Assembly (NCBI RefSeq): GCF_036492635.1
Contig: NZ_AP025305.1
Coordinates: forward strand, 3,798,000 to 3,861,999
Reading direction: 5' to 3'
From: Aureibacter tunicatorum
GTDB taxonomy: Bacteria; Bacteroidota; Bacteroidia; Cytophagales; Cyclobacteriaceae
Length of the DNA: 64,000 bases
Shown: piece by piece, positions 27,323 through 56,615 of the stretch
How the letters are laid out: the number at the start of each line of letters is the position of its first letter
How positions within the stretch are numbered: the first letter of the stretch is position 1
Notes under the pieces: model-generated
Told to the model about the DNA's origin: nothing
What the model saw: only the letters and a program-made list of their open reading frames with translations
Database searches by the model: none
Translations under genes and position numbers: made by a program

Positions 27323-28144
27323 ATGAATAAATTAAACTTCCATATCGACAAAGACTTGGATGGTGTTGAGATAATGTCCGCTAATATATTATCGCAAAAC
27401 ACTCACGCCCATACACACCAAGAATACGCTATTGGTGTAATGGAAAGAGGCGTTCAATCCTATGATCCCAAACGTAAAAAAGACAAATACATGGTGTCAG
27501 GCGATATACCTGTTGTCAATCCATTTACAGTGCACAATAGTCAAAATCTTGATGAAGATGGATTTAGCTACCGCATGTTTTACATTGACAGCAAGGTTAT
27601 AGAGCATATATCTTCGCAAGTATTTGAAATTCCTGATGCTGCCCGTATTTTTGATCGGTTTTTTATACGTGATCATTATGTTGAAAGAAACTTAATCCAT
27701 TTGCATCACATTCTGGAGAACAATGCTTTTGATATTATACAGAAGCAAAACTATTTTTATGAAGTCATAGCTTATTTGCTCAAAACACATTCAATACTCA
27801 AAGCTCATAGCCCTAGCATCATCAATGCGCATTCTGCAATTCAAAGAGTTGAGGAATATATTCATGCGCGCTATTCTCAAAAAATCGAATTGAAAGACCT
27901 GTCAAAAGTCGCATGCATGAGCCCCTATCACCTAAACAGGCTATTTGCGAAAAAAAAAGGCTTAAGTCCTCATCAATACTTAATCAACTTGCGGTTGAAT
28001 AAAGCCCGAGAGCTCTTAAAGAGCAATTATAGCGCTACTGAAATAAGCCATCAAGTAGGCTTTTATGATCAAGCTCACTTTACACGAAACTTCAAGCTAT
28101 ACATCGGAATTACCCCAAAGCAATACCAAAAACAGATTATATAG
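27323..28144 (+). CDS. AraC-family transcriptional regulator (cupin-type sensor plus HTH)
   Basis: C-terminal 'SPYHLNRLFAKKKGLSPHQYLINLRLNKARELL'. Confidence 0.75.
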   Translation: MNKLNFHIDKDLDGVEIMSANILSQNTHAHTHQEYAIGVMERGVQSYDPKRKKDKYMVSGDIPVVNPFTVHNSQNLDEDGFSYRMFYIDSKVIEHISSQVFEIPDAARIFDRFFIRDHYVERNLIHLHHILENNAFDIIQKQNYFYEVIAYLLKTHSILKAHSPSIINAHSAIQRVEEYIHARYSQKIELKDLSKVACMSPYHLNRLFAKKKGLSPHQYLINLRLNKARELLKSNYSATEISHQVGFYDQAHFTRNFKLYIGITPKQYQKQII

Positions 28145-28246
28145 CAAGAATATACAAGTTTTAAAATATCCTCTTATCTAGTTTTGCTTATATGAACAAT
28201 TCCGATAATATCAGTTATAAAACTGAGATACTTAGACAAGAACAAT

Positions 28247-28579
28247 ATGATAAATGAAAATCCATTACTTTCGAAATTCCCCTCTGCTGACATCGCTGTG
28301 GCAGGAGTCTTTTCAAAGCTTATTCAAGCTGGAGAACAACAATTTATCTTCATGGAGTTTGAATCAGACGCAGTGATTCCTCCTCACTCCCATAATGCTC
28401 AATGGGGCATTGTACTGGATGGAGAAATGGAGTTAACGATCAATAGCAGAGTACTTAGACTTAAAAAAGGCGACTCATATTTTATCAAAAAAGGGGAAAT
28501 TCATTCGGCTAAAATCAAAGCTGGCTACAAAGATCTCACATTGTTTGATCAAAAAGATCGCTACACTCCTATGAAATAA
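28247..28579 (+). CDS. Cupin-domain protein
   Basis: 'PPHSHNAQWGIVLDGEMEL...GDSYFIKKGEIHSA'. Confidence 0.6.
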   Translation: MINENPLLSKFPSADIAVAGVFSKLIQAGEQQFIFMEFESDAVIPPHSHNAQWGIVLDGEMELTINSRVLRLKKGDSYFIKKGEIHSAKIKAGYKDLTLFDQKDRYTPMK

Positions 28580-28700: not shown

Positions 28701-29216
28701 CTAAAAAAACACTAATTGGCAATCAGGAAGAAGCTTAATCTGATCACAGCCGCCAATATATTTTGTGATTTTTTCAAATACTTTCCTTAATCTCTTCGCA
28801 TTAACTTCATTCGACTCTGAGTGAACTCTCCAATCAATAATAGACGTGTCATTTTTAAACCTATATTCAAGGTAATAATCAGTATGCGGAGTTATATATA
28901 ATGTAGTAGTCGGAGCATAACTATGTGGATACTTACAAATATCAATATCAACAAGATCTTGATAAATTTCTTTTTTAAAATCCAGACCAATGACGAAACT
29001 TATCGTGGTATCTTGATCCCAATCAAATTTATATGTTAAAGAATCGGTAAACGTATCAATCTTGTAAATTCCGAAATTAACTTCAGCCTTGAAGTCAAAT
29101 GTTACAGGCATTTCTTTGTCATAACGACAAGAAGAAACTTTTCGAATACATCCATGTAAAATAAATACAACAAATAACACACTTATAAATTTCATAAGAT
29201 TGCAACTCATCATCAT
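28701..29216 (-). CDS. Hypothetical lipoprotein
   Basis: Signal plus lipobox 'FILHGCIRK'. Start overlaps the upstream gene's stop by 4 nt. Confidence 0.5.
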   Translation of the reverse strand: MMMSCNLMKFISVLFVVFILHGCIRKVSSCRYDKEMPVTFDFKAEVNFGIYKIDTFTDSLTYKFDWDQDTTISFVIGLDFKKEIYQDLVDIDICKYPHSYAPTTTLYITPHTDYYLEYRFKNDTSIIDWRVHSESNEVNAKRLRKVFEKITKYIGGCDQIKLLPDCQLVFF

Positions 29217-30820
29217 ATCAAATACAACCTAACAGCTCTAAATTCCCTCTCTTCGTCTTCCAGATGATATTTAAACGTCGTCTTGGCATGCTGTATATGC
29301 ACTCCGCCGGGACGCATCGCGCAAACCACTGTCTTGTCATCTAACTCTTCCTCCTCTTGATCCCAATGGCTTCTAGGCTTCACATGTATGGCTCCCGTGC
29401 TTTCATCCACATGATCAAAGAAAATCGTCAATACATGAAGCTTTCTGTATTCTTCATCGGTAACATCTCTCCAGATAATCTCTTCCTCTTCCATACGGTC
29501 CGGTATCTGATGATGCTTTTGCCACTGGTGATGATCGTCTCTAAGAGCATTCTGATAGAACAAGGCTGCAATAATCTCTGTCGAATTCCCTAAACCAACA
29601 TCTATAAATCGTTGCAGATTATCATTGAACAAAATCGCCAGCGACTCTGGCCGGTCAATATGCAAAAGCACTGGCTTCTCCCATTCTACCCGACAGTTGA
29701 CAAATGTGCGAATTTGCTGGATTTCCTGTATGGTATAAAACTCGTCAATACTGGCATAACCTTTTCGCTGAACACGCTTGAAAGCTTCATTGATAACTTC
29801 TCCATTAATATTAAACTGGTAGTGCCTGTTGGCAAGCATCAATCGCTTCTGGATGCTCTTCTGCAATCTCGCCGGCCTTAAGACTTTTATCGCCTCTCCA
29901 AAACCCAATATCTCTTTTTCTAATTCATAGTTAAGTTGTAAATACATTGAAACTACAATTCCTCCAGGAAGATCTCGAACCTTCTTTTGCGAATGATGAA
30001 TTGGTTTGGTCAATACATAAGGAGCGTGTTTCTTTTCCACAAACAGTTCTATACGCTCAATCTTCGGCTCATATTCGACACTCACTCCGATCGCGTGTTT
30101 GAAGTAATCAACCAAATCCCAACGCGTATTGCCTATATAATCACATTCACTATTATCCAAATTGATAATCCTGTCAAATGCCAACAGCATGGGGTTTTGC
30201 TTTGCATTCTTGAACCCAAGCACAAACCAACGATTCCTGAACTCTTTCAATAACTGCGGATGAAAGTCAAAAGTGCTTTCCTCTCTGGCTTTGAATGATT
30301 TATAAGTCAGCTTTATGGATCTTTTATGCAATACAGATTCATACAAGGGTTCTAGATACTCCAAGCCCTTCAATTCATTATTGGTCTCAAACTGAATAAT
30401 CGGCATTTGATTATCTCGCTTGGACTGAACAGAATCTTCCAGCTTCTGTATCATGCCCGACAATTCTTGCACTTGCGTAAACCCTTTGAACTGCTTCAAT
30501 ATATCCACCGCATCGGATAGCTTGCGCAAATCCTGATCTGTCAGCGGAATATTTGTAATCGAATAATTCGGATCCTCATAAGTATAGTACTTTCTGTCTT
30601 TGACAATGATCGGAGCATTGTACCCCAGCTTGTCACTTCGCATCATCTGAATGTCAAGCTGTACTGTTCGTTTGCTCACTCCTTTGTCTATTCCTTCATA
30701 TTCGTACAATGCTTCCGAACAAGCTTCCACCAAGTCATCCAAGGTCCATTGCCTGAAGCGATTTTTCAAACATTGATCAATAGTCTTATAGCGCACTAGT
30801 GCGTTTCTATTTGCCGGCAT
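29213..30820 (-). CDS. HTH plus WYL domain regulator fused to a C-terminal PhyH-like Fe(II)/2-oxoglutarate dioxygenase domain
   Basis: N-terminal 'GVSKRTVQLDIQMMRSDKLGYNAPII' (HTH_11-like). WYL core 'IKLTYKSF...NRWFVLGF...MLLAFDRIINLD'. C-terminal 'FFDHVDESTGAIHVKPRSH...GGVHIQHAKTTF' resembles the PhyH 'NGxLxVIPGSH' region. Confidence 0.6.
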   Translation of the reverse strand: MPANRNALVRYKTIDQCLKNRFRQWTLDDLVEACSEALYEYEGIDKGVSKRTVQLDIQMMRSDKLGYNAPIIVKDRKYYTYEDPNYSITNIPLTDQDLRKLSDAVDILKQFKGFTQVQELSGMIQKLEDSVQSKRDNQMPIIQFETNNELKGLEYLEPLYESVLHKRSIKLTYKSFKAREESTFDFHPQLLKEFRNRWFVLGFKNAKQNPMLLAFDRIINLDNSECDYIGNTRWDLVDYFKHAIGVSVEYEPKIERIELFVEKKHAPYVLTKPIHHSQKKVRDLPGGIVVSMYLQLNYELEKEILGFGEAIKVLRPARLQKSIQKRLMLANRHYQFNINGEVINEAFKRVQRKGYASIDEFYTIQEIQQIRTFVNCRVEWEKPVLLHIDRPESLAILFNDNLQRFIDVGLGNSTEIIAALFYQNALRDDHHQWQKHHQIPDRMEEEEIIWRDVTDEEYRKLHVLTIFFDHVDESTGAIHVKPRSHWDQEEEELDDKTVVCAMRPGGVHIQHAKTTFKYHLEDEEREFRAVRLYLI

Positions 30821-30905
30821 AAATATTTTTTTTACAAAAAATCAGCTCTGAGACATGAATGAAAGCTGTTTAAAATGAAAATTTAAAGAAATTACATATT
30901 TTTTT

Positions 30906-30950
30906 TTACTGCGCAAAAAGATTGCGCATTGGCTTTTCAACTTTGTAATG
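30906..30950 (+). promoter_or_regulatory. Palindrome-containing promoter/operator motif, copy A (upstream of the tRNA-like RNA locus)
   Basis: ttactGCGCAAaaagaTTGCGCAtt...ctttgtaa. About 85% identical to 35210..35250. Confidence 0.55.
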
Positions 30951-31034
30951 AATCAAGGAAACAATCGGATGTTTCTGTACAGCATCAAGGAATCCGCCGG
31001 TAGGTTAGGATTTTCCTGATTGTGGAAGTTGGTT

Positions 31035-31215
31035 CTCTGGCTTAGCAGGTCGGAGGTTCGAATCCTCCCTTTGACTTATGGTCAAGGTAGTTCAGCAGGT
31101 TAGAACAGCTAAATTTATAGTCGTGTGGGTTCAAATCCCACCTCCTCTCGAAGGAGTGGTGGAATTGGTAGACACCTCAAATTGCAAATTTGATGACTCG
31201 GAAGTCTATGACTTC
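31035..31215 (+). ncRNA. Structured RNA built from tRNA-like modules in permuted order (tRNA-mimic / Y-RNA-like, or permuted tRNA halves)
   Basis: T-arm-acceptor hairpin-D-arm order repeated twice, followed by a type-II-like anticodon arm. Elements detailed in the first finding. Confidence 0.45.
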
Positions 31216-31450
31216 AATTTATTGACCTAAAGAACAAGGCTTTGCATTATCGGCTTTAAGCAAACGGCTCAAAGCAATTTTTAATTCGTCAGAAAATAGC
31301 GGATACCGTCTAAAGAAATTTTATTCTCTTTTGATTCGATTCATACAGACAATAAAATGAGCTTTTTTCTTAAGCCTTTTTCCATGAATTGAAAATGATA
31401 ATGCACCGTTTTGTTCTTTTTAATGTGTAACAACATAATACTTATATAAA

Positions 31451-32551
31451 ATGAAACCAATAAAAATCAATGAAGGAAACATAGGAATGATCTTCAAAAG
31501 TGGAGATTTCAATAAACTTTTGAAAGCAGGAAAGCACTGGATTAGCTTTAATGATTCAGTGGAAATCCATAATATGGCGAAGCCTTTCCAAAGCGACATT
31601 CCTCTAAATGTATTGCTAAAGCATGACGATTTCAAAAACGCTATAGAAGTAATTGAAGTCAATGACGACCAACTTGTTCTTCGATATGAAGACGGTGCCT
31701 TCAGCGAAGTATTGAGAGCTGGAAAATACGCATATTGGAAAGGTATTGCCAACCATTCATTTCAATATTGTGATTTGAAAGAAGCTAGAGTTCCAGCCGA
31801 GATCAGCTTGAACGTATTAAAAACCATGGCATTAAAGCTTTTGACTAAAGAAATTGAAATTCAACCCTTTGAAAAGGCATTGCTTTACATTGATGGAAAA
31901 TTGGATTCAGAATTAAAACAAGGAGCTCATTATTTTTGGTCTAACAGCAAAAATATTCAAATCCAACGCATAGATACCAGAACTCAAACATTGGAGATTT
32001 CAGGACAAGAGATTTTGACACAAGACAAGGTAAATCTGAGGATTAACTTTTCGGCGCAATATCAAGTATATGATATTTATCTTGCGAGAGAAAAGACCAA
32101 GGAATTTGAAACTCAATTATATCAAATGTTTCAGCTTGCTCTGAGAGAATATGTCGGTACCTTGCCTTTGGACGAACTATTGGCAAAAAAAGAATCGGTC
32201 TCTGAATTTATCATCAACCATCTTTCTGCGAAGACCAAAGAAATCGGCGTAAGAATTCTTGATTGCGGAGTAAGAGATCTGATATTGCCGGGAGAAGTAA
32301 AGGAAATAATGAATCAGGTGTTGATCGCTCAGAAAAAAGCTCAAGCGAATATCATCACCCGAAGAGAAGAAACAGCATCCACTAGAAGCTTGCTCAACAC
32401 CGCCAAGCTAATGGAAGACAACCCGATGCTATTCAAGCTCAAAGAAATGGAATACGTGGAAAAAATCTCTGAGAAAATCAGCGAAATTACACTATCCAAC
32501 GGAGGCCAGATCATCGACCAGCTTAGAGGAATGTTTGGCACTGCAAAGTAA
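31451..32551 (+). CDS. SPFH/band-7 (stomatin/prohibitin/flotillin/HflKC) domain protein
   Basis: 'ILTQDKVNLRINFSAQYQVYD...LREYVGTLPLDELLAKKES...IGVRILDCGVRDLILPGEV' band-7 core. Confidence 0.65.
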   Translation: MKPIKINEGNIGMIFKSGDFNKLLKAGKHWISFNDSVEIHNMAKPFQSDIPLNVLLKHDDFKNAIEVIEVNDDQLVLRYEDGAFSEVLRAGKYAYWKGIANHSFQYCDLKEARVPAEISLNVLKTMALKLLTKEIEIQPFEKALLYIDGKLDSELKQGAHYFWSNSKNIQIQRIDTRTQTLEISGQEILTQDKVNLRINFSAQYQVYDIYLAREKTKEFETQLYQMFQLALREYVGTLPLDELLAKKESVSEFIINHLSAKTKEIGVRILDCGVRDLILPGEVKEIMNQVLIAQKKAQANIITRREETASTRSLLNTAKLMEDNPMLFKLKEMEYVEKISEKISEITLSNGGQIIDQLRGMFGTAK

Positions 32552-32593: not shown

Positions 32594-33217
32594 TTGCCTT
32601 TGAATATAGAAACAACACTCAACATAGACCATAACCTTAAGGAAATGATCTTCAGCACTGCTGTTGGAGATCTTTCCTTCACCTACTTTGAGCATTGGCT
32701 GCTTAACCAAAGCCAATACCACAACCTTATTGCTGAGGATTTATTTTTCTTGAATCTTTACAGCATGGATTACCAAGACAAAGGAATTCAAGAAGAATTT
32801 GAAAAGACTATTCTAGAACACCTTGACCAAAATGAATTTGAATTATTCAAAATCAAACACATACTCAATAAAATCACTGAAGATGAAAGTCAGATAGAAC
32901 GTTTGCTTCAAGTTTGCTTGGATTGGAAAAATAACGATATGGAATGGATCAAACGATTTGGGTATCATTTATATGATTTTAGCGAATATGAATTCTATGG
33001 GTATTCGAAAAAAGAATTAATCAATAAGATTCAACGAGAAGCAAAAGATTTGCTCTCCGCATTGCAAGACGATAACCACATTCATAAAAACATAGAATTT
33101 CGGCCGAATCGATTCACTACAATTCGTCCAAAAAGTATAAAAATCAAAATCCTCAACCGGAGAAGAAAAAGAAGAAAATCAGTATTAGAGAGACTAAGAA
33201 ACATGTTAAATAGATGA
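32594..33217 (+). CDS. Hypothetical protein with strongly basic C-terminal tail (KILNRRRKRRKSVLERLRNMLNR)
   Basis: 207-aa ORF following the SPFH gene. No recognised domain. Confidence 0.45.
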   Translation: MPLNIETTLNIDHNLKEMIFSTAVGDLSFTYFEHWLLNQSQYHNLIAEDLFFLNLYSMDYQDKGIQEEFEKTILEHLDQNEFELFKIKHILNKITEDESQIERLLQVCLDWKNNDMEWIKRFGYHLYDFSEYEFYGYSKKELINKIQREAKDLLSALQDDNHIHKNIEFRPNRFTTIRPKSIKIKILNRRRKRRKSVLERLRNMLNR

Positions 33218-33223
33218 TATTTA

Positions 33224-34297
33224 TTAATTATTTTGATAAAAATATGGGTAAATTATTTTTTCCCATGTTTTTCCTCCGTCTTTTGTCATCATTAAAACAT
33301 TTCCTGAATTCACAATTCCTATTTCTTTGTTAATAAAAGATACGTTTAAAATATTTTGCAAATAAAAAAAATGCTCCCATGTTGCCCCGGAATCATTAGA
33401 AATGTAAATATCATTCGCAGCATAAGCCATTAAATAGTTAGAATCTAATTGAATTACTTTGCTTATATTCTTTCCATCAATGATTTTAATATTTATTTCT
33501 TCAAATTCATTTCCAACCTTTCTATATATTGCAGCCCCATCTGTTAAAAACAATTGTTCTCCATCGCTATTCACAAAAATAATCTCTCTTTTTTCAGGAT
33601 TAGCAAATAAACTCTGTTCCCATGTTCTTCCAAAATCTAGAGAATAATAAATAGTATTATCCTCTTCAAAACTACTATGACTTTTATTAATCAAGCTTAT
33701 ATAAATAGCGCCTGATGAGTTTGCATGAACATCAATTCCCAAATGATTCTCAAAATAATTTATTAATCTCTTTTCTTTTTTAACAAAATCATATTCATAA
33801 ATTCTACTGTCCTCTTTATTCTCACTAACAAGCAAATAAACTCTATCTTTTACAAGTTTGTAAGACTTGAGACTTTCTCCTACATTTAAACGAAACTCTA
33901 TATCCTCCCAACTATCACCTCCATCTACAGTGTAAATAAAGCTAAGGTATTTAGTTTTATAGTTTTGATTAATTAGAAAAAAAGCATATTCCTCATCCAT
34001 ATAAATTAATGGATAATCATTAAGTATAATTTCATCGTCCAAAGTTTGTGTGTCAAAACTTTCAAACCAATTATTAGTGGTAAAGAAATATCCATTTGCA
34101 TACCCATAAATTATTGAATCATTAGTTAATCGAGCGTAAAGATCTTGACCTTCTGTTAACAATTCAATTTCTGGATTAATAGTAACTGTTTCATACAAAG
34201 AATTTACTTTATCAAAAACTAAATCTTCTGAATCTCCACATGAGCAACATAACAAACATAAAAAAACAACAATATTTAAATTAATACCTCTATGCAT
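33224..34297 (-). CDS. Secreted BNR/Asp-box repeat protein
   Basis: Signal peptide. Four S-x-D-x-G-x-T-W boxes ('TVDGGDSWE', 'SLDFGRTWE', 'SNDSGATWE', 'TKDGGKTWE'). Confidence 0.65.
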   Translation of the reverse strand: MHRGINLNIVVFLCLLCCSCGDSEDLVFDKVNSLYETVTINPEIELLTEGQDLYARLTNDSIIYGYANGYFFTTNNWFESFDTQTLDDEIILNDYPLIYMDEEYAFFLINQNYKTKYLSFIYTVDGGDSWEDIEFRLNVGESLKSYKLVKDRVYLLVSENKEDSRIYEYDFVKKEKRLINYFENHLGIDVHANSSGAIYISLINKSHSSFEEDNTIYYSLDFGRTWEQSLFANPEKREIIFVNSDGEQLFLTDGAAIYRKVGNEFEEINIKIIDGKNISKVIQLDSNYLMAYAANDIYISNDSGATWEHFFYLQNILNVSFINKEIGIVNSGNVLMMTKDGGKTWEKIIYPYFYQNN

Positions 34298-34316
34298 TTA
34301 TCCTCTTTTAAGTGCT

Positions 34317-35051
34317 TCAATTATTGTATCTCGCATCATTTTTTATAATTGGCGGTCTTTTTTTAATAGGCGAAGAATATCCTAAAGTCAAAGAAATATT
34401 ATCTATATTATACCTTACTTTACTCTTCTCTTCATATACTTGCCTATGTTCCAAATTATAAATAGCATCATAATCTATTTCTAAATATGGTCGAAAAATC
34501 TCATAATTAACTTTCAAAAATAAACGACCATATCTCACTTTCACACCTGATACCATTGAAAGTCCCATACCATCCAAAAGGTGTTTCGACTTCGCTGTTT
34601 TTTTACCAGTTATTCCAATAGTTTTCAATTCATCAGAATAATAGGTATAGGTAAAATAATTTTTCACATAATTATGCTTTAATGATAATGTTGGTCGTAT
34701 TTCAAATGAGTTTCTTTTAAAAATATTATAGCTCATTTCTGCTCCTAAATTCCAATGAGTCAATACCTCATAAAGAGTCCCTGAGCTTCTTGTATAAATT
34801 GAATTAACTTTCTTTGAAGATCTTTTTATTCCGAACTCTGGTTTAATGAACAACTTCCTTTTCAATACATTTATATCCAATCCAACTGTGCCATTAAATG
34901 CCAAATTCATAGACTGATTTATATCCTTATGTTGTGGAAGAGAAATACCAAAATCAGCTTCAAAACTCTGATTCACCTCTTGAGCATATACATTTTCACA
35001 AAAACTAAACAATAATACAATACAAAGTATTGTCATTTTTATTAATCTCAT
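34317..35051 (-). CDS. Outer-membrane beta-barrel (porin-family) protein
   Basis: Signal 'MRLIKMTILCIVLLFSFCENVYAQ' with beta-strand periodicity. Similar class to 8450..9076. Confidence 0.5.
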   Translation of the reverse strand: MRLIKMTILCIVLLFSFCENVYAQEVNQSFEADFGISLPQHKDINQSMNLAFNGTVGLDINVLKRKLFIKPEFGIKRSSKKVNSIYTRSSGTLYEVLTHWNLGAEMSYNIFKRNSFEIRPTLSLKHNYVKNYFTYTYYSDELKTIGITGKKTAKSKHLLDGMGLSMVSGVKVRYGRLFLKVNYEIFRPYLEIDYDAIYNLEHRQVYEEKSKVRYNIDNISLTLGYSSPIKKRPPIIKNDARYNN

Positions 35052-35209: not shown

Positions 35210-35250
35210 CTACGCAAAAAGATTGCGCAATAATGCTTCTATTTTGTAAA
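35210..35250 (+). promoter_or_regulatory. Palindrome-containing promoter/operator motif, copy B (immediately upstream of rtcB)
   Basis: ttactaCGCAAaaagaTTGCGCAat...ttttgtaa. ATG of rtcB lies 25 bp downstream. Confidence 0.55.
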
Positions 35251-35274: not shown

Positions 35275-36435
35275 ATGAAAAAAGTAATCAGCACGGAAAA
35301 ACGGCCAATCAAACTTTGGCTGGATGATATAGAAAACGGCGCCTTAGAGCAAGCCAAAAACCTTGCGAACCTTCCCTTTGCATTCAAACATATTCCATTG
35401 ATGCCGGACAGTCATCAAGGCTATGGCATGCCTATAGGCTCGGTATTAGCGACCAAGGAAGTAGTAGTGCCCAATGCTGTCGGCGTTGATATCGGTTGCG
35501 GGATGTGCGCATTGCCAACGAGCCTTAAAAATATAGAAAAAGACAATCTTAAAGCGATCTTGGGTGAAGCTCGTAAACGAATTCCTGTTGGAATGAATTG
35601 GCATAAAGAATCTCAAGGAGAAGAGCGAATGCCAGAAGGAGCTGACAGCTTGGAAATCGTCTCGCAAGGCTACAACAAAGCTTTGAAGCAAATCGGAACT
35701 TTGGGAGGAGGCAACCATTTTGTGGAAATCCAGCAAGGCTCTGACGGACATATTTGGCTGATGATTCACTCTGGAAGCCGTAACCTTGGCGCTAAAGTAG
35801 CAGACCATTATAACAAGCTGGCAAAGCGTCTGAATGAAAGGTACTTTTCAGTAGTGGACAAGAAAACGGATTTGGCATTTTTACCCATTGAAACTCCCGA
35901 AGCCAAAAACTATCTTAAAGAAATGAACTATTGCATCGAGTTTGCGCTTGCCAATAGAAAATTAATGATGGAGCGTCTAGTAGAAGCTATGCAAGCTGTC
36001 TTGGGAGAATTTGAAACAGGAGAAATGATCAATAAATCGCACAATCTGGCGACTTGGGAAAACCATTTTGGCGAAAATGTGCTCGTGCATCGTAAAGGAG
36101 CAACTCCTGCCTTTGAGGGCGAACTAGGCATGATACCAGGATCCCAGGGGACGAGTTCATATATCGTCAAAGGATTGGGAAATCCTGAAAGTTTCAAATC
36201 TTGTTCTCACGGTGCAGGAAGAAAGCTGGGCAGAAAGCAAGCTCAGCGTACTTTGGATCTGAAAGAAGAAATTCAATACCTGAATGACAAAGGCATCGTA
36301 CATGCCGTAAGAAACAAAAGCGATCTTGACGAGGCGGTAAGCGCCTACAAAAACATCGACGAAGTCATGGAAAATCAAAAGGACCTTGCCGAAATTGTTG
36401 TACAACTTTCGCCATTAGCTGTATTGAAGGGATAA
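35275..36435 (+). CDS. rtcB: RNA-splicing ligase RtcB (3'-phosphate/5'-OH RNA ligase)
   Basis: 'MPDSHQGYGMPIGSVL', 'VGVDIGCGMC', 'GGGNHFVEIQ', 'SHGAGR' RtcB metal- and GMP-binding motifs. Confidence 0.85.
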   Translation: MKKVISTEKRPIKLWLDDIENGALEQAKNLANLPFAFKHIPLMPDSHQGYGMPIGSVLATKEVVVPNAVGVDIGCGMCALPTSLKNIEKDNLKAILGEARKRIPVGMNWHKESQGEERMPEGADSLEIVSQGYNKALKQIGTLGGGNHFVEIQQGSDGHIWLMIHSGSRNLGAKVADHYNKLAKRLNERYFSVVDKKTDLAFLPIETPEAKNYLKEMNYCIEFALANRKLMMERLVEAMQAVLGEFETGEMINKSHNLATWENHFGENVLVHRKGATPAFEGELGMIPGSQGTSSYIVKGLGNPESFKSCSHGAGRKLGRKQAQRTLDLKEEIQYLNDKGIVHAVRNKSDLDEAVSAYKNIDEVMENQKDLAEIVVQLSPLAVLKG

Positions 36436-52772: not shown

Positions 52773-52842
52773 TCCATATTAATCAAAAACAAAAAAGCGA
52801 AACGCAATAATACGTTTCGCTTAAAATCAAAAGAAAATCTCG

Positions 52843-52915
52843 AGCGGGTGATCAGGTTCGAACTGACGACTTACAGCTTGGAAGGCTGTCGCTCTACCAA
52901 CTGAGCTACACCCGC
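52843..52915 (-). tRNA. tRNA-Gly (anticodon UCC)
   Basis: Reverse complement folds as GCGGGTG-TA-GCTCAGTTGGTAGAGC-G-ACAGC-CTTCCAA-GCTGT-AAGTC-GTCAGTTCGAACCTGAT-CACCCGC-T. Confidence 0.9.
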
Positions 52916-52952
52916 AATAAAAGAGTAACAACCGACAAATATCGGAAAATAG

Positions 52953-53025
52953 AGCGGGTGATCAGGTTCGAACTGACGACTTACAGCTTGGAAGGCTGTC
53001 GCTCTACCAACTGAGCTACACCCGC
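52953..53025 (-). tRNA. tRNA-Gly (anticodon UCC)
   Basis: Identical copy of 52843..52915. Confidence 0.9.
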
Positions 53026-53041
53026 GATTTTCAATTCTATG

Positions 53042-53124
53042 TGGGGAGAGCAGGATTCGAACCTGCGAAGTCGAAAGACAACGGATTTACAGTCCGTCCC
53101 AGTTGGCCGCTTTGGTATCTCCCC
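53042..53124 (-). tRNA. tRNA-Tyr (anticodon GUA), type II with long variable arm
   Basis: Reverse complement GGGGAGA-TA-CCAAAGCGGCCAACTGGG-...-CTGTAAA-...-GCAGGTTCGAATCCTGC-TCTCCCC-A. Confidence 0.85.
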
Positions 53125-53169
53125 AACTAAATATTTTAAATTTATTCAAACCTATTATTTGAATACTGG

Positions 53170-53242
53170 AGCGGGTGATCAGGTTCGAACTGACGACTTA
53201 CAGCTTGGAAGGCTGTCGCTCTACCAACTGAGCTACACCCGC
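53170..53242 (-). tRNA. tRNA-Gly (anticodon UCC)
   Basis: Identical repeat copy. Confidence 0.9.
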
Positions 53243-53258
53243 GATTTTCAATTCTATG

Positions 53259-53341
53259 TGGGGAGAGCAGGATTCGAACCTGCGAAGTCGAAAGACAACG
53301 GATTTACAGTCCGTCCCAGTTGGCCGCTTTGGTATCTCCCC
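53259..53341 (-). tRNA. tRNA-Tyr (anticodon GUA)
   Basis: Identical repeat copy. Confidence 0.85.
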
Positions 53342-53387
53342 AACTAAATATTTTAAAATTTATTCAAACCTATTATTTGAATGCTGG

Positions 53388-53460
53388 AGCGGGTGATCAG
53401 GTTCGAACTGACGACTTACAGCTTGGAAGGCTGTCGCTCTACCAACTGAGCTACACCCGC
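53388..53460 (-). tRNA. tRNA-Gly (anticodon UCC)
   Basis: Identical repeat copy. Confidence 0.9.
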
Positions 53461-53476
53461 GATTTTCAATTCTATG

Positions 53477-53559
53477 TGGGGAGAGCAGGATTCGAACCTG
53501 CGAAGTCGAAAGACAACGGATTTACAGTCCGTCCCAGTTGGCCGCTTTGGTATCTCCCC
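53477..53559 (-). tRNA. tRNA-Tyr (anticodon GUA)
   Basis: Identical repeat copy. Confidence 0.85.
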
Positions 53560-53605
53560 AACTAAATATTTTAAAATTTATTCAAACCTATTATTTGAAT
53601 GCTGG

Positions 53606-53678
53606 AGCGGGTGATCAGGTTCGAACTGACGACTTACAGCTTGGAAGGCTGTCGCTCTACCAACTGAGCTACACCCGC
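53606..53678 (-). tRNA. tRNA-Gly (anticodon UCC)
   Basis: Identical repeat copy. Confidence 0.9.
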
Positions 53679-53694
53679 GATTTTCAATTCTATG

Positions 53695-53777
53695 TGGGGA
53701 GAGCAGGATTCGAACCTGCGAAGTCGAAAGACAACGGATTTACAGTCCGTCCCAGTTGGCCGCTTTGGTATCTCCCC
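53695..53777 (-). tRNA. tRNA-Tyr (anticodon GUA)
   Basis: Identical repeat copy. Confidence 0.85.
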
Positions 53778-53823
53778 AACTAAATATTTTAAAATTTATT
53801 CAAATCTATTATTTGAATGCTGG

Positions 53824-53896
53824 AGCGGGTGATCAGGTTCGAACTGACGACTTACAGCTTGGAAGGCTGTCGCTCTACCAACTGAGCTACACCCGC
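53824..53896 (-). tRNA. tRNA-Gly (anticodon UCC)
   Basis: Identical repeat copy. Confidence 0.9.
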
Positions 53897-53912
53897 GATT
53901 TTCAATTCTGTG

Positions 53913-53995
53913 TGGGGAGAGCAGGATTCGAACCTGCGAAGTCGAAAGACAACGGATTTACAGTCCGTCCCAGTTGGCCGCTTTGGTATCTCCCC
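53913..53995 (-). tRNA. tRNA-Tyr (anticodon GUA)
   Basis: Repeat copy with a single substitution in the flank. Confidence 0.85.
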
Positions 53996-54254: not shown

Positions 54255-56615
54255 ATGAAAGTTTGCATCGCGGAAAAGCCATCGGTGGCAAAAGAAATTG
54301 CGCAAATCATAGGCGCCAAACAACGTAATGATGGATATTTTGAAGGAAATGGATATCAAGTCACATGGACTTTTGGACACCTATGCACATTAAAAGAACC
54401 ACACGACTACTTGCCCATACTCAAAAGCTGGAGTTTGCAGATGCTCCCCATCCTTCCCGAAAGGTTCGGAATCAAACTTATCGACGATGGAGGAATCAAA
54501 AAACAATTTAAAACCATAGAAAAACTTCTCTCCACAGCCAAACTTGTCATCAACTGCGGTGATGCTGGACAAGAAGGGGAACTGATACAACAATGGGTCA
54601 TAAAAAAAGCCAAATACAAAGGAGAAATCAAAAGGCTTTGGATCTCATCGCTAACGAAAGAAGCAATACAAAACGGTTTCAACAAGTTGTACAGCAACTC
54701 TGATTTTGCCAACCTTTATGCAGCTGGCAGCACCAGGGCTATTGGAGACTGGTTGCTAGGCATCAACGCTACTCGAGCGTATACGCTCAAATACGGCGAT
54801 GGCAAAGGAGTCCTTTCCATTGGAAGAGTGCAAACCCCTACACTAGCTCTAATTGTCAAAAGACAAAAAGAAATCGAGAATTTCACACCCGAGCCGTACT
54901 GGGAATTAAAGACAAAATACAGAGATGTCGCTTTTTCAAGCGAAACCAAACGATACTCCTCAAAAGAAAGTGTTGAATCAATTGTAAACGAGATTAAAAA
55001 TAGCGAATTAACCATTGTTAGCTTTAAGAAGCAAAATGGCAAAGAATTGCCCCCAAGCCTTTTTGATCTCACCTCCCTGCAAGTCGAATGCAATAAGAAA
55101 CTTTCTTTCTCTGCGGATCAAACATTGAAAATCGTTCAATCTCTATATGAAAAAAAGTTTGTAACATACCCTAGAGTGGATACAACCTTTCTTCCTGATG
55201 ATATTTATCCTCAGGTAAGCTATATCTTGAAATCAATGGAAAGGTTTCAACATTTAACCCAACCTCTGCTTGGAAAAAAAATTAGAAAATCAAAAAAGGT
55301 CTTCAACAACCAAAAAGTAACAGACCACCATGCCATCATACCGACGCAAGTAACTGCTCGAGGACTAAACAATCAAGAACAGAGCGTTTACGATATCATT
55401 GCCAAAAGATTCATCGCTGTATTTTATGATGATTGCCTCGTTTCAAAAACAGAAGTCAAAAGCGAAGTTGAAAAGCATAAATTCAAAGCTACGGGAAAAC
55501 AGATATTATCCATGGGCTGGAGAGAAGTATATGCGGATGAAAAAAATTGGAAAAGCGCATCAAAAGAAGACGAACAAGTAATGCCTGTGTTCAAAGAAGG
55601 TGAATCTGGCCCTCATCTGCCTTATTTCGAAGAAAAGATGACCAAGCCTCCCAAGTATTATACTGAAGCTTCCCTTCTAAGAGCTATGGAAACTGCAGAC
55701 AAGGAAGTTGATGACGAAGAATTAAGAAATGTGCTAAAGCAAAACGGCATTGGCAGACCTTCAACCAGGGCCAGCATTATTGAAACTCTGCACAAGAGAA
55801 GATATATAACTAAACAGAAAAAAAGGCTTGAAGCAACAAGTGTCGGCACTCAACTAATTGACACAATAAATTCCGACCTGCTGAAGTCAGTGGAATTAAC
55901 CGGGCAGTGGGAACACAAGCTCAGACAAATTGAAGATGGCAAATTATCACCAAATTCTTTTTTGAAAGAAATGAAAGAAATGGTTTCAAACATCATTGGT
56001 GATGTGAAAAATGCCAGTTCTCAAAAAATACTCCAAAGTCAACACAACAACTCTCCTAAAAAACCGTCAAAAGCTCCGGAAAAAAAAGCTAATCTTTGCC
56101 CAAAATGCGGAAAAGGAAAAGTTCTTACTGGAAAGTCGGCTTATGGTTGCTCAGAATGGAAACAAGGTTGCGACTTCAGATTACCTCTTTCATGGAATGA
56201 AATAAAAATAAGTCAATCCATGATGGAAGCGTTAGTCAAAAAAGGAAAATCTAGACTAATCAAGAATGCATCGATTAACGGCAAAAAGCAAAACGGCCAT
56301 CTAATCATAGACAAGAACACAAACTTAAGCTTTGAAACCGTTGAAGAAAAAAAGATGACCTGTCCGAAATGCAGCTCCGAACTATTAAAAGGCAAAAATG
56401 CTTTTGGTTGCTCATCTTGGAAGCAAGGCTGTCATTTCAAAATCCCTTTTGAATGGAATGGAAAGAAGTTCACCCAAGCCCAAATCTACCGACTTATCGA
56501 AAAGAGAGAAACTACTCTTATAAAAGGGTTCACAGATCCTGTCTCATCGGAAAAATACAATGCTGTTATCCAGCTAAATGCCACTAACCAAATCGGCGAA
56601 GTTAGAAAAAAATAG
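54255..56615 (+). CDS. topB: DNA topoisomerase III with C-terminal tandem zinc-ribbon modules
   Basis: TOPRIM N-terminus 'MKVCIAEKPSVAKEIAQII', type IA core. Two C-terminal 'CPKC...GC' zinc ribbons. Confidence 0.85.
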   Translation: MKVCIAEKPSVAKEIAQIIGAKQRNDGYFEGNGYQVTWTFGHLCTLKEPHDYLPILKSWSLQMLPILPERFGIKLIDDGGIKKQFKTIEKLLSTAKLVINCGDAGQEGELIQQWVIKKAKYKGEIKRLWISSLTKEAIQNGFNKLYSNSDFANLYAAGSTRAIGDWLLGINATRAYTLKYGDGKGVLSIGRVQTPTLALIVKRQKEIENFTPEPYWELKTKYRDVAFSSETKRYSSKESVESIVNEIKNSELTIVSFKKQNGKELPPSLFDLTSLQVECNKKLSFSADQTLKIVQSLYEKKFVTYPRVDTTFLPDDIYPQVSYILKSMERFQHLTQPLLGKKIRKSKKVFNNQKVTDHHAIIPTQVTARGLNNQEQSVYDIIAKRFIAVFYDDCLVSKTEVKSEVEKHKFKATGKQILSMGWREVYADEKNWKSASKEDEQVMPVFKEGESGPHLPYFEEKMTKPPKYYTEASLLRAMETADKEVDDEELRNVLKQNGIGRPSTRASIIETLHKRRYITKQKKRLEATSVGTQLIDTINSDLLKSVELTGQWEHKLRQIEDGKLSPNSFLKEMKEMVSNIIGDVKNASSQKILQSQHNNSPKKPSKAPEKKANLCPKCGKGKVLTGKSAYGCSEWKQGCDFRLPLSWNEIKISQSMMEALVKKGKSRLIKNASINGKKQNGHLIIDKNTNLSFETVEEKKMTCPKCSSELLKGKNAFGCSSWKQGCHFKIPFEWNGKKFTQAQIYRLIEKRETTLIKGFTDPVSSEKYNAVIQLNATNQIGEVRKK

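Follow-up and report, generated by a model that had tools for sequence, protein, structure and literature searches.

A WYL-domain transcription factor with a degenerate PhyH-like domain, and its likely RNA-repair regulon, in Aureibacter tunicatorum

We analyzed a stretch of 64,000 nucleotides (nt) from the genome of Aureibacter tunicatorum (order Cytophagales, family Persicobacteraceae; contig NZ_AP025305.1, positions 3,798,000 to 3,861,999), referred to below as the window, and focused on a gene on its reverse strand (positions 29213 to 30820) that encodes a protein of 535 amino acids (aa). The product of this open reading frame (ORF) matches, with 100% identity, an A. tunicatorum protein listed by NCBI as a "helix-turn-helix transcriptional regulator" and consists of a winged helix-turn-helix (wHTH) domain, linker helices, a WYL domain, a WCX domain, and a degenerate PhyH-like domain, in that order. 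Divergently from this gene, on the forward strand, lie a YrlA-like or tRNA-like noncoding RNA, a gene for an SPFH/Band-7 protein, a gene for a 207-aa protein, and, further along, rtcB, encoding an RNA ligase. Judging from the sequence comparisons described below, the protein is most likely a regulator of these neighboring RNA-repair genes (RtcB, Band-7 protein, and tRNA-like RNA).

The wHTH DNA-binding domain (residues ~1 to 95; 30536 to 30820, reverse strand) was delineated from an AlphaFold2 (AF2) model and from its alignment with the wHTH domain of DriD in Protein Data Bank (PDB) entry 8tp8. Three helices (residues 5 to 19, 27 to 42, and 50 to 61) are followed in the model by two strands (71 to 74 and 78 to 81), and this region shows 82 to 90% identity across the regulator family; no Pfam HTH model matched the protein. 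The WYL domain, presumably the ligand sensor (residues 154 to 220; 30161 to 30361, reverse strand), was identified by PF13280 (E value of 1.6e-10; 41.3 bits against a cutoff of 21.8), and WYL models from PADLOC, including CRISPR-associated ones, matched the protein as well, together covering residues 16 to 327. Within this domain, K192, E193, N196, R197, W198, F199, G202, D216, and R217 are invariant among 61 sequences, with R195 kept in at least 90% of them. The WCX domain (residues 255 to 327; 29840 to 30058, reverse strand) was found by PF25583 (E value of 7.2e-7; 29.9 bits against a cutoff of 23.9), while a search of the protein against NCBIfam returned no match.

The full-length AF2 model had a mean predicted local distance difference test score (pLDDT) of 82.4 and a predicted template-modeling score (pTM) of 0.53, the latter of which suggests that the predicted domains are arranged flexibly with respect to one another. 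By Foldseek, residues ~1 to 340 matched DriD, a WYL-type activator from Caulobacter that was solved in complex with single-stranded DNA (ssDNA) and operator DNA (8tp8; E value of 1.2e-13 over ~342 columns), as well as PafBC (9fnd and 6sj9) and CapW (9c5g and 7tb6); the activators DriD and PafBC rank highest among these, and structures of their complexes with RNA polymerase are among the entries matched. A sequence search of the PDB with the N-terminal 335 aa alone yielded no match. The window protein thus combines a wHTH (by fold), PF13280, and PF25583 with a palindromic operator (by sequence), and the regulator is a DriD/PafBC/CapW-like wHTH-WYL-WCX transcription factor. In this respect, an earlier note on this DNA, which had proposed an HTH-WYL regulator, was right: the WYL domain is confirmed by Pfam and the HTH by its fold matches to DriD, PafBC, and CapW, and the strings cited as evidence (NRWFVLGF, residues 196 to 203, and LAFDRIINLD, residues 213 to 222) lie in or near the WYL domain.

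The divergent intergenic region contains a palindrome (TGCGCAAAAAGATTGCGCA; 30910 to 30928, forward strand) 90 nt upstream of the regulator ATG, to be called operator 1, and a second copy, operator 2 (TACGCAAAAAGATTGCGCA; 35211 to 35229, forward strand), is situated upstream of rtcB. Including their flanks, the two sites (near 30900 to 30930 and upstream of rtcB) have about 30 nt in common. In most related loci, whether they encode a long or a short form of the regulator (see below), a palindrome adjoins the regulator gene, often ~50 to 60 nt from its ATG, and further copies occur near RtcB or SPFH genes, yielding a 19-bp consensus of T(G/A)CGCAA-N5-TTGCGCA. The earlier suggestion that the regulator gene sits beside an operator motif and a tRNA-like RNA was borne out by this arrangement. 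A third palindrome-like match in the window, at position 54300, has two mismatches and was discarded as being at chance level (three matches versus 1.7 expected).

Promoters of Bacteroidota carry a -7 element, TAnnTTTG, and a TTTG near -33. Operator 1 is followed by a -7-type box (CAACTTTG; 30938 to 30945, forward strand), the G of which is located 17 nt past the operator end and which is conserved in Fulvitalea, and operator 2 is followed by a TTTG box (35243 to 35246) at, again, +17. This spacing turned out to be a general feature: in 50 of 61 sites, and always on the operon strand, a TTTG was found with its G exactly 17 nt past the operator end (background frequency of TTTG, 0.008 per position), and Fulvitalea follows the same rule. 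In summary, this yields the wider consensus TTTnAC-TACGCAAAAAGATTGCGCA-N9-nAnnTTTG-TAT. Given the known layout of Bacteroidota promoters, the operator would occupy the -33 position itself, apparently without a separate -33 element, and operator 1 would do so in the promoter of the tRNA-like RNA, the SPFH gene, and the gene for the 207-aa protein.

To place the locus in context, we compared 80 related loci from species-representative genomes with that of the window (81 in total), clustered all neighboring ORFs, and assigned family identities with Pfam; relatives of the regulator are encoded in at least 587 genomes. RtcB is present on the strand opposite the regulator in 55 of the 81 loci. Other recurrent neighbors, mostly or entirely on that same opposite strand, are SPFH/Band-7 proteins (22 loci), RlaP nucleotidyltransferases (15 loci), the TROVE- and vWA-containing Ro60 (11 loci), an uncharacterized family of ~200 aa (11 loci, including the gene at 32594 to 33217 of the window), PrfH-like RF-1 proteins (8 loci), Tpt1/KptA (5 loci), and PNKP (4 loci). 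No recurrent defense-system genes were found among the neighbor clusters of the 81 loci. The proposal that the protein serves as a regulator or sensor for the operator and the tRNA-like module is therefore strongly supported by comparative genomics, through both the conserved neighbors and the phased operator, whereas the association with defense or DNA damage that had been expected from the WYL domain was not: the adjacent locus is an RNA-repair module.

In the window, the SPFH/Band-7 gene (31451 to 32551, forward strand; 366 aa) was recognized by PF01145 (E value of 1.4e-31), its product being 63% identical to that of the corresponding operon gene in Fulvitalea. The next gene (32594 to 33217, forward strand) encodes the 207-aa protein, which has no Pfam match and whose homologs are found on the operon strand in the 11 loci mentioned above and in Fulvitalea, where the gene sits between those for Band_7 and RtcB; this family is an uncharacterized conserved component of the Band-7/RtcB module. 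The RtcB RNA ligase (35275 to 36435, forward strand; 386 aa) was identified by PF01139 (E value of 1e-110) and shares 77% identity with its Fulvitalea counterpart. The order in Fulvitalea is intact, with the regulator, a spacer of 990 nt, Band_7, a 212-aa gene, RtcB, and two successive RlaP genes, whereas the window operon is split after the gene for the 207-aa protein by two oppositely oriented genes (33224 to 35051, reverse strand), encoding a BNR/Sortilin-repeat protein and an outer membrane beta-barrel protein. As far as the gene orders tell, this two-gene insertion has separated rtcB from the rest of an ancestral operon. Neither RlaP nor other genes of the Fulvitalea operon were present downstream of rtcB in the window.

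The noncoding RNA (30950 to 31225, forward strand; approximate ends) begins directly after operator 1 and its -7 box and was delineated by Rfam covariance matches and conservation. YrlA is a bacterial Y RNA with a tRNA-like domain. The Rfam YrlA model matched positions 31044 to 31112 (34 bits; E value of 2e-4) and the tRNA model positions 31087 to 31142 (27.2 bits), both below the curated thresholds, and ARAGORN called no tRNA at this locus. With YrlA scores of 34 to 41 bits (gathering score, 69), these RNAs look like divergent YrlA rather than normal tRNAs, while in Fulvitalea the RNA reached a tRNA score of 38.2 bits, which is above the Rfam threshold (29). The RNA of Aureibacter contains two tandem modules, and that of Fulvitalea three, each made up of a T-arm, a closed acceptor-like hairpin, and a D-arm. 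In all five further SPFH loci tested, the operon strand carries a YrlA-like match in the interval from the regulator gene to the SPFH gene. Since the minimum free energy of the whole putative RNA was not significant on its own (z = -1.44), the case for a tRNA-like RNA is carried by the covariance-model matches together with this conservation. It may belong to the class of Band-7-associated tRNA-like RNAs, which has never been validated.

Several observations on the RNA and on nearby tRNA genes are worth recording. The modules, both in the window RNA and in a related locus (L081, 9500 to 9700, reverse strand), resemble tandem permuted tRNA-like units. In other loci, the position of the YrlA-like RNA is taken by genuine-looking tRNA-Tyr genes or by arrays of 5 to 18 different tRNAs, located upstream of SPFH/RtcB on the operon strand and mostly between these genes and the regulator (e.g., L005, 9061 to 9861; L039, 8256 to 9449; L073, 4986 to 6503; and L079, 243 to 1333). 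The tRNA is often Tyr(GTA), present as a single gene in L014, L021, L022, and L025, and one locus (L040) contains an odd tRNA with an anticodon that was called with 4 nt. The tRNAs near RNA-repair operons could be a damage-inducible spare set under joint control with RNA repair. Elsewhere in the window (52842 to 53995, reverse strand), we found 11 tRNA genes, six for tRNA-Gly(TCC) and five for tRNA-Tyr(GTA), arranged mostly as a Gly-Tyr repeat unit of ~218 nt; Tyr(GTA) is also the commonest tRNA beside SPFH/RtcB operons in other loci.

The remaining part of the regulator, residues 336 to 535 (29216 to 29815, reverse strand), corresponds to a degenerate PhyH-like domain with a double-stranded beta-helix fold. 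Finding it required indirect searches: PhyH was not matched in the window protein by Pfam, even at an E value of ≤10, or by NCBIfam, and a sequence search of the PDB with the C-terminus alone gave nothing significant (best E value, 0.22). However, the homolog search uncovered over 7,000 relatives. The best 120 clusters come almost exclusively from Bacteroidota, and in 98 of them, WYL and WCX are joined to PhyH (PF05721) in proteins of ~575 to 585 aa. The closest relative, from Fulvitalea axinellae (57% identity), and the window protein are both shorter and lack the PF05721 match. A profile of the intact C-terminal domains matched AviO1 (4xaa; E value of 6e-6), human PAHX (2a1x; 5.6e-4), MysH, and FtmOx1, and the window C-terminus scored 48.8 bits against a hidden Markov model (HMM) built from 109 intact domains (E value of ~3e-17 for a single comparison), which made it the second most diverged of 40 sequences scored. 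An AF2 model of residues 331 to 535 (pLDDT of 79.8; pTM of 0.82) had PhyH-type dioxygenases as its only PDB fold matches (TlxI, OkaE, FtmOx1, EvdMO1, AviO1, and AsqJ; E values of 3e-10 to 1e-8 and TMq of 0.62 to 0.67). As the family profile, the intact-domain HMM, and the fold search agree, the domain is, on the strength of alignments and models, of PhyH-type Fe(II)/2-oxoglutarate (2OG) dioxygenase ancestry and fused to this regulator family.

The earlier note had described a C-terminal PhyH-like oxygenase domain as an uncommon fusion. Its ancestry stood, albeit without a direct Pfam match, while its supposed rarity did not, the combination of WYL, WCX, and PhyH being widespread in Bacteroidota. 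Likewise, a standard WCX domain, which had been considered as an alternative identity for the C-terminal region, is present at residues 255 to 327, but the PhyH-like domain lies beyond it.

Stand-alone PhyH proteins of ~240 aa, also from Bacteroidota, share 46 to 50% identity with the intact fused domain. Those in Kordia, Chryseobacterium, and Sphingobacterium had no WYL, RtcB, or RNA-repair neighbors; the unannotated genes upstream of them did not encode WYL proteins, and their contexts gave no clue to a substrate. In Chryseobacterium bernardetii (L083, 6747 to 8723), one such protein (46% identity to the fused domain) is encoded ~3 nt after a sodium:dicarboxylate symporter gene, a possible hint at the supply of a dicarboxylate (2OG-like) substrate or cosubstrate for this PhyH subfamily. 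In one further protein (P0202; 370 aa), WCX and PhyH occur together with CarboxypepD_reg-like domains but without WYL or HTH, which makes it an unusual, rearranged relative of the C-terminal half.

We then asked where the iron ligands would be. Profile alignment to PAHX (2a1x) and MysH fixed the family ligand positions at W-H-Q-D, L-H-A-S, and R-R-V: "WHQD" aligned with "WHND" of MysH, the His of "LLHAS" with that of "LIHGS" in PAHX, and the second Arg of "RRVIHLEF" with the Arg of "FRKA" in PAHX. In the window copy, the first of these positions reads W433-Q434-K435-H436, and the distal His is replaced by F516; R528, which aligns with the 2OG-binding Arg of the family (in R-R-V) and with that of "FRKA" in PAHX, is retained. 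The window segment F467-F-D469-H470-V-D472-E-S-T-G476 aligns with a family strand, H-L-D-D-T-D-x-x-N-G, that is conserved but does not contribute ligands. Compared with intact forms, ~45 residues are missing between the HxD region and this "HLDD" strand. The domain also carries a net charge of -14, versus a mean of +3.8 in intact domains, and its identity between Aureibacter and Fulvitalea is 27%, versus 90% (HTH), 91% (linker), 68% (WYL), and 61% (WCX) in the other parts of the protein. The strings that had been taken for the iron site are indeed there (residues 467 to 485 and 505 to 516), but the residues singled out in them do not correspond to the ligands, and the idea of a catalytic or metabolite-binding oxygenase finds no support in this copy, where the triad is gone (Q434, H436, and F516) and ~45 residues are deleted. 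Because the 2-His-1-carboxylate triad is absent, catalysis or Fe/2OG binding appears unlikely for the window protein; its PhyH-like domain is probably catalytically dead and should be annotated as a degenerate remnant rather than as an active dioxygenase.

Loss of the active site is not restricted to this lineage. Among 149 nonredundant long forms, 111 kept H, D, and H as well as the Arg, and 38 had lost at least one of these residues. In addition, short forms of 333 to 360 aa, which lack the PhyH domain altogether, are encoded at RtcB loci of the same type and share the operator with the long forms. On a neighbor-joining tree of the N-terminal 335 aa, parsimony indicated about 10 switches between short and long forms and about 16 between intact and degenerate forms, counts that are rough and inflated by tree error. 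No separate PhyH gene, which would have been a sign of fission or fusion, was found within 10 kb of the short-form regulators in 44 loci. The PhyH-like domain is an evolutionarily labile accessory.

Combining these findings, we propose the following scheme, in which the identity of the ligand, the direction of control, and any role of the PhyH-like domain are inferred. A dimer would bind the palindrome through its near-invariant wHTH, with the WYL domain sensing single-stranded nucleic acid, most plausibly damaged RNA or tRNA fragments, by analogy with ssDNA in DriD, PafBC, and CapW and with tRNA fragments in RtcR. Once bound to its ligand, the regulator would turn on two promoters, one driving the YrlA-like RNA, the SPFH/Band-7 gene, and the gene for the 207-aa protein and the other driving rtcB, and it would probably control its own, divergent gene as well. 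The PhyH-like domain of the window copy would be a noncatalytic remnant, at most a structural or allosteric appendage. We consider this reading as a whole, that of a Bacteroidota-type regulator of an RNA-repair module with a PhyH-like domain that is noncatalytic in the window, to be probable. Several points speak against it, in whole or in part. DNA binding by the regulator is itself a prediction, made from fold and operator conservation, and WYL regulators of solved structure are known to bind ssDNA rather than RNA as their ligand. The assignment of ligand residues depends on the alignment, although a second alignment, which moved the HxD column by a few residues, still showed no HxD, and some function, including metal binding at a new site, is conceivable, as the window domain contains 12 histidines in an intact frame of 200 codons. 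Furthermore, the AF2 alignment for the C-terminus was dominated by intact homologs, from which the predicted fold is partly inherited. Finally, the association of the long form with SPFH (16 of 35 long-form loci versus 6 of 46 short-form loci; odds ratio of 5.6, P = 0.002) was calculated without regard to phylogeny.

For the sign of regulation, this scheme has a serious alternative, since a palindrome over -33 would equally suit a repressor such as CapW or BrxR. The same protein could control the same regulon by blocking RNA polymerase until a WYL ligand releases it, and the overlap between operator and core promoter, which 50 related promoters share with the window, would be in line with such a role. 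So would the fold matches to CapW (9c5g and 7tb6), a WYL repressor, and the many sites located ~50 to 60 nt upstream of the regulator ATG, which would suit autorepression. Nevertheless, a rigid phasing between operator and promoter, here a fixed 17 nt, combined with the lack of a separate -33 element, is more typical of an activator and is what leads us to favor direct activation, as in DriD and PafBC; these activators, including their complexes with RNA polymerase, also provide the best fold matches. None of these arguments is decisive, and we keep repression as a possible, if less probable, mode of action. As to what is being regulated, the notion that the protein controls a defense or DNA-damage locus and that its proximity to RNA-repair genes is incidental could draw on the CRISPR-associated WYL models of PADLOC that match it and on its closest solved relatives, DriD and PafBC, which control DNA-damage regulons. 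With RNA-repair genes as conserved neighbors in most loci, the operator at their promoters, and no recurrent defense genes in the neighbor clusters, we find this highly improbable.

For the C-terminal domain, two opposite interpretations had to be weighed. It might still be a working or Fe/2OG-binding oxygenase that uses H470-x-D472 together with H508 or H511: the fold is PhyH-like, the Arg at the 2OG position (R528) is kept, an H-x-D and several His residues are close by, and most relatives look catalytically competent. Yet H470-V-D472 falls within the strand whose sequence in active relatives is H-L-D-D-T-D and which is not a ligand strand in the PAHX and MysH alignments, the canonical positions are filled by Q434/H436 and F516 in a barrel that is short of ~45 residues, Pfam PhyH gives no match, and the 27% identity to the domain of the closest relative points to relaxed constraint, all of which makes activity very unlikely. 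At the other extreme, the last 200 residues might be functionless and on their way out, with the protein working as a short-form regulator would. This would agree with the presence of short forms at the same RtcB loci with the same operator, with the ~10 gain or loss events and ~16 switches between intact and degenerate states, and with the fast divergence and deletions in the Aureibacter/Fulvitalea lineage. However, the 200-codon frame is uninterrupted in both Aureibacter and Fulvitalea despite the 27% identity, in a genome whose GC content of 37% favors the appearance of stop codons, the domain is modeled with a confident fold, and the family-invariant residues Y334, G354, D469, G476, and G505 are kept; we regard a complete loss of function as possible but less likely.

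Downstream of the regulator, a gene for a putative lipoprotein of 171 aa (28701 to 29216, reverse strand) has an ATGA start that overlaps the regulator stop codon, which suggests that the two genes may be translationally coupled; its product had no Pfam match and no homolog among the 80 related loci. Beyond this gene lie an AraC-family regulator (273 aa) and then a small cupin protein (110 aa), together spanning 27323 to 28579 (forward strand). Five related loci contain AraC genes similar to the window copy, probably by coincidence.

While the claim of an oxygenase-bearing sensor is weakened for the window by the domain being a remnant, the family as a whole deserves a separate assessment. The ~75% of the family that keep the triad and the 2OG Arg might be true hybrids of enzyme and transcription factor, coupling Fe(II)/2OG/O2 chemistry to the induction of RNA repair, an idea that we put forward tentatively and consider rather unlikely. 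If it were true, the chemistry could consist of PerR-like self-hydroxylation, of iron, oxygen, or 2OG sensing, or of oxidative processing of damaged RNA or of a nucleotide signal, and the WYL nucleic-acid sensor would be complemented by a second input, one that seems to go preferentially with modules containing Band-7 and tRNA-like RNA. Under this view, the copy in Aureibacter would be a pseudoenzyme limited to an allosteric or scaffolding role. In any case, the recurrence of the PhyH fusion raises the possibility of oxidative or metabolic input into RNA-damage signaling. Further features of the family are a DNA-binding domain that hardly varies, a precisely defined operator of 19 bp, and a constant promoter geometry upstream of RtcB, Band-7, Ro60, RlaP, PrfH, and tRNA-like RNAs. 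Operator DNA, regulator, and candidate RNA ligands would thus be testable reagents for the signal that induces RNA repair outside the RtcR paradigm, and the same reagents bear on the role of the tRNA-like RNAs associated with Band-7, a class that has never been validated. Public annotations already reflect the architecture, under names such as "WYL domain-containing protein" and "phytanoyl-CoA dioxygenase family protein," but a full-text literature search, the reach of which did not extend to Burroughs and Aravind (2016), found no description of the fusion, the operator, or the pairing of regulator and operon.

Of the systems known from other bacteria, DriD of Caulobacter and PafBC of actinobacteria are closest in structure. 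They share the fold, from wHTH and linker to WYL and WCX (Foldseek E values of 1e-13 to 1e-10 over ~340 columns), as well as a palindromic site in the upstream half of target promoters and, presumably, control by a WYL ligand. The window family differs from them in its low sequence similarity (~15% identity and no PDB match by sequence), in having RNA-repair rather than DNA-damage neighbors, in its -33/-7 Bacteroidota promoters, and in the additional C-terminal PhyH-like domain, which is absent from all solved WYL regulators. That domain, in turn, has the same double-stranded beta-helix fold as PhyH dioxygenases such as PAHX, AviO1/EvdO1, FtmOx1, MysH, TlxI, and OkaE, and intact family members also have the HxD...H motif and the Arg. 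The window copy, fused to a transcription factor, retains the fold and R528 of these PhyH traits but has lost the triad, the PF05721 match, and part of the barrel; the stand-alone PhyH proteins of Bacteroidota differ from the fused domains by being encoded outside RNA-repair neighborhoods.

With respect to the regulated genes, the toolkit for RNA repair was reportedly catalogued by Burroughs and Aravind in 2016. The window likewise encodes RtcB, an SPFH/Band-7 protein, and a tRNA-like noncoding RNA, with RlaP, Ro60, and PrfH as partners in relatives, and can be compared with the association of RtcB, Band-7, and a "b7a-tRNA" that those authors predicted, as summarized in bioRxiv 10.1101/312249; their study is also cited for RlaP in PMC12776372. 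Unlike in that system, however, the RNA of the window, with its tandem modules, resembles YrlA more closely than a single authentic-looking tRNA, and the operon is split.

In its genomic role, finally, the regulator resembles RtcR, which consists of a CARF domain, a sigma54-type AAA+ domain, and an HTH. To our knowledge, Proteobacteria, in which RtcR acts as the sensor of damaged tRNA, are the only group whose RNA-repair operons have been studied well. RtcR activates rtcBA or rsr-yrlBA-rtcBA, and both proteins are divergent regulators beside an RtcB operon with a possible Y RNA or tRNA-like RNA. The inducers of RtcR are tRNA fragments that terminate in a 2',3'-cyclic phosphate (PMC7790460). 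Neither Pfam nor NCBIfam identified CARF, AAA+, or sigma54-interacting domains in the regulator described here, which is a functional analogue of RtcR and not a member of its family. What appears to be the Bacteroidota counterpart of RtcR is an unrelated, DriD-like WYL regulator that is encoded in hundreds of genomes.

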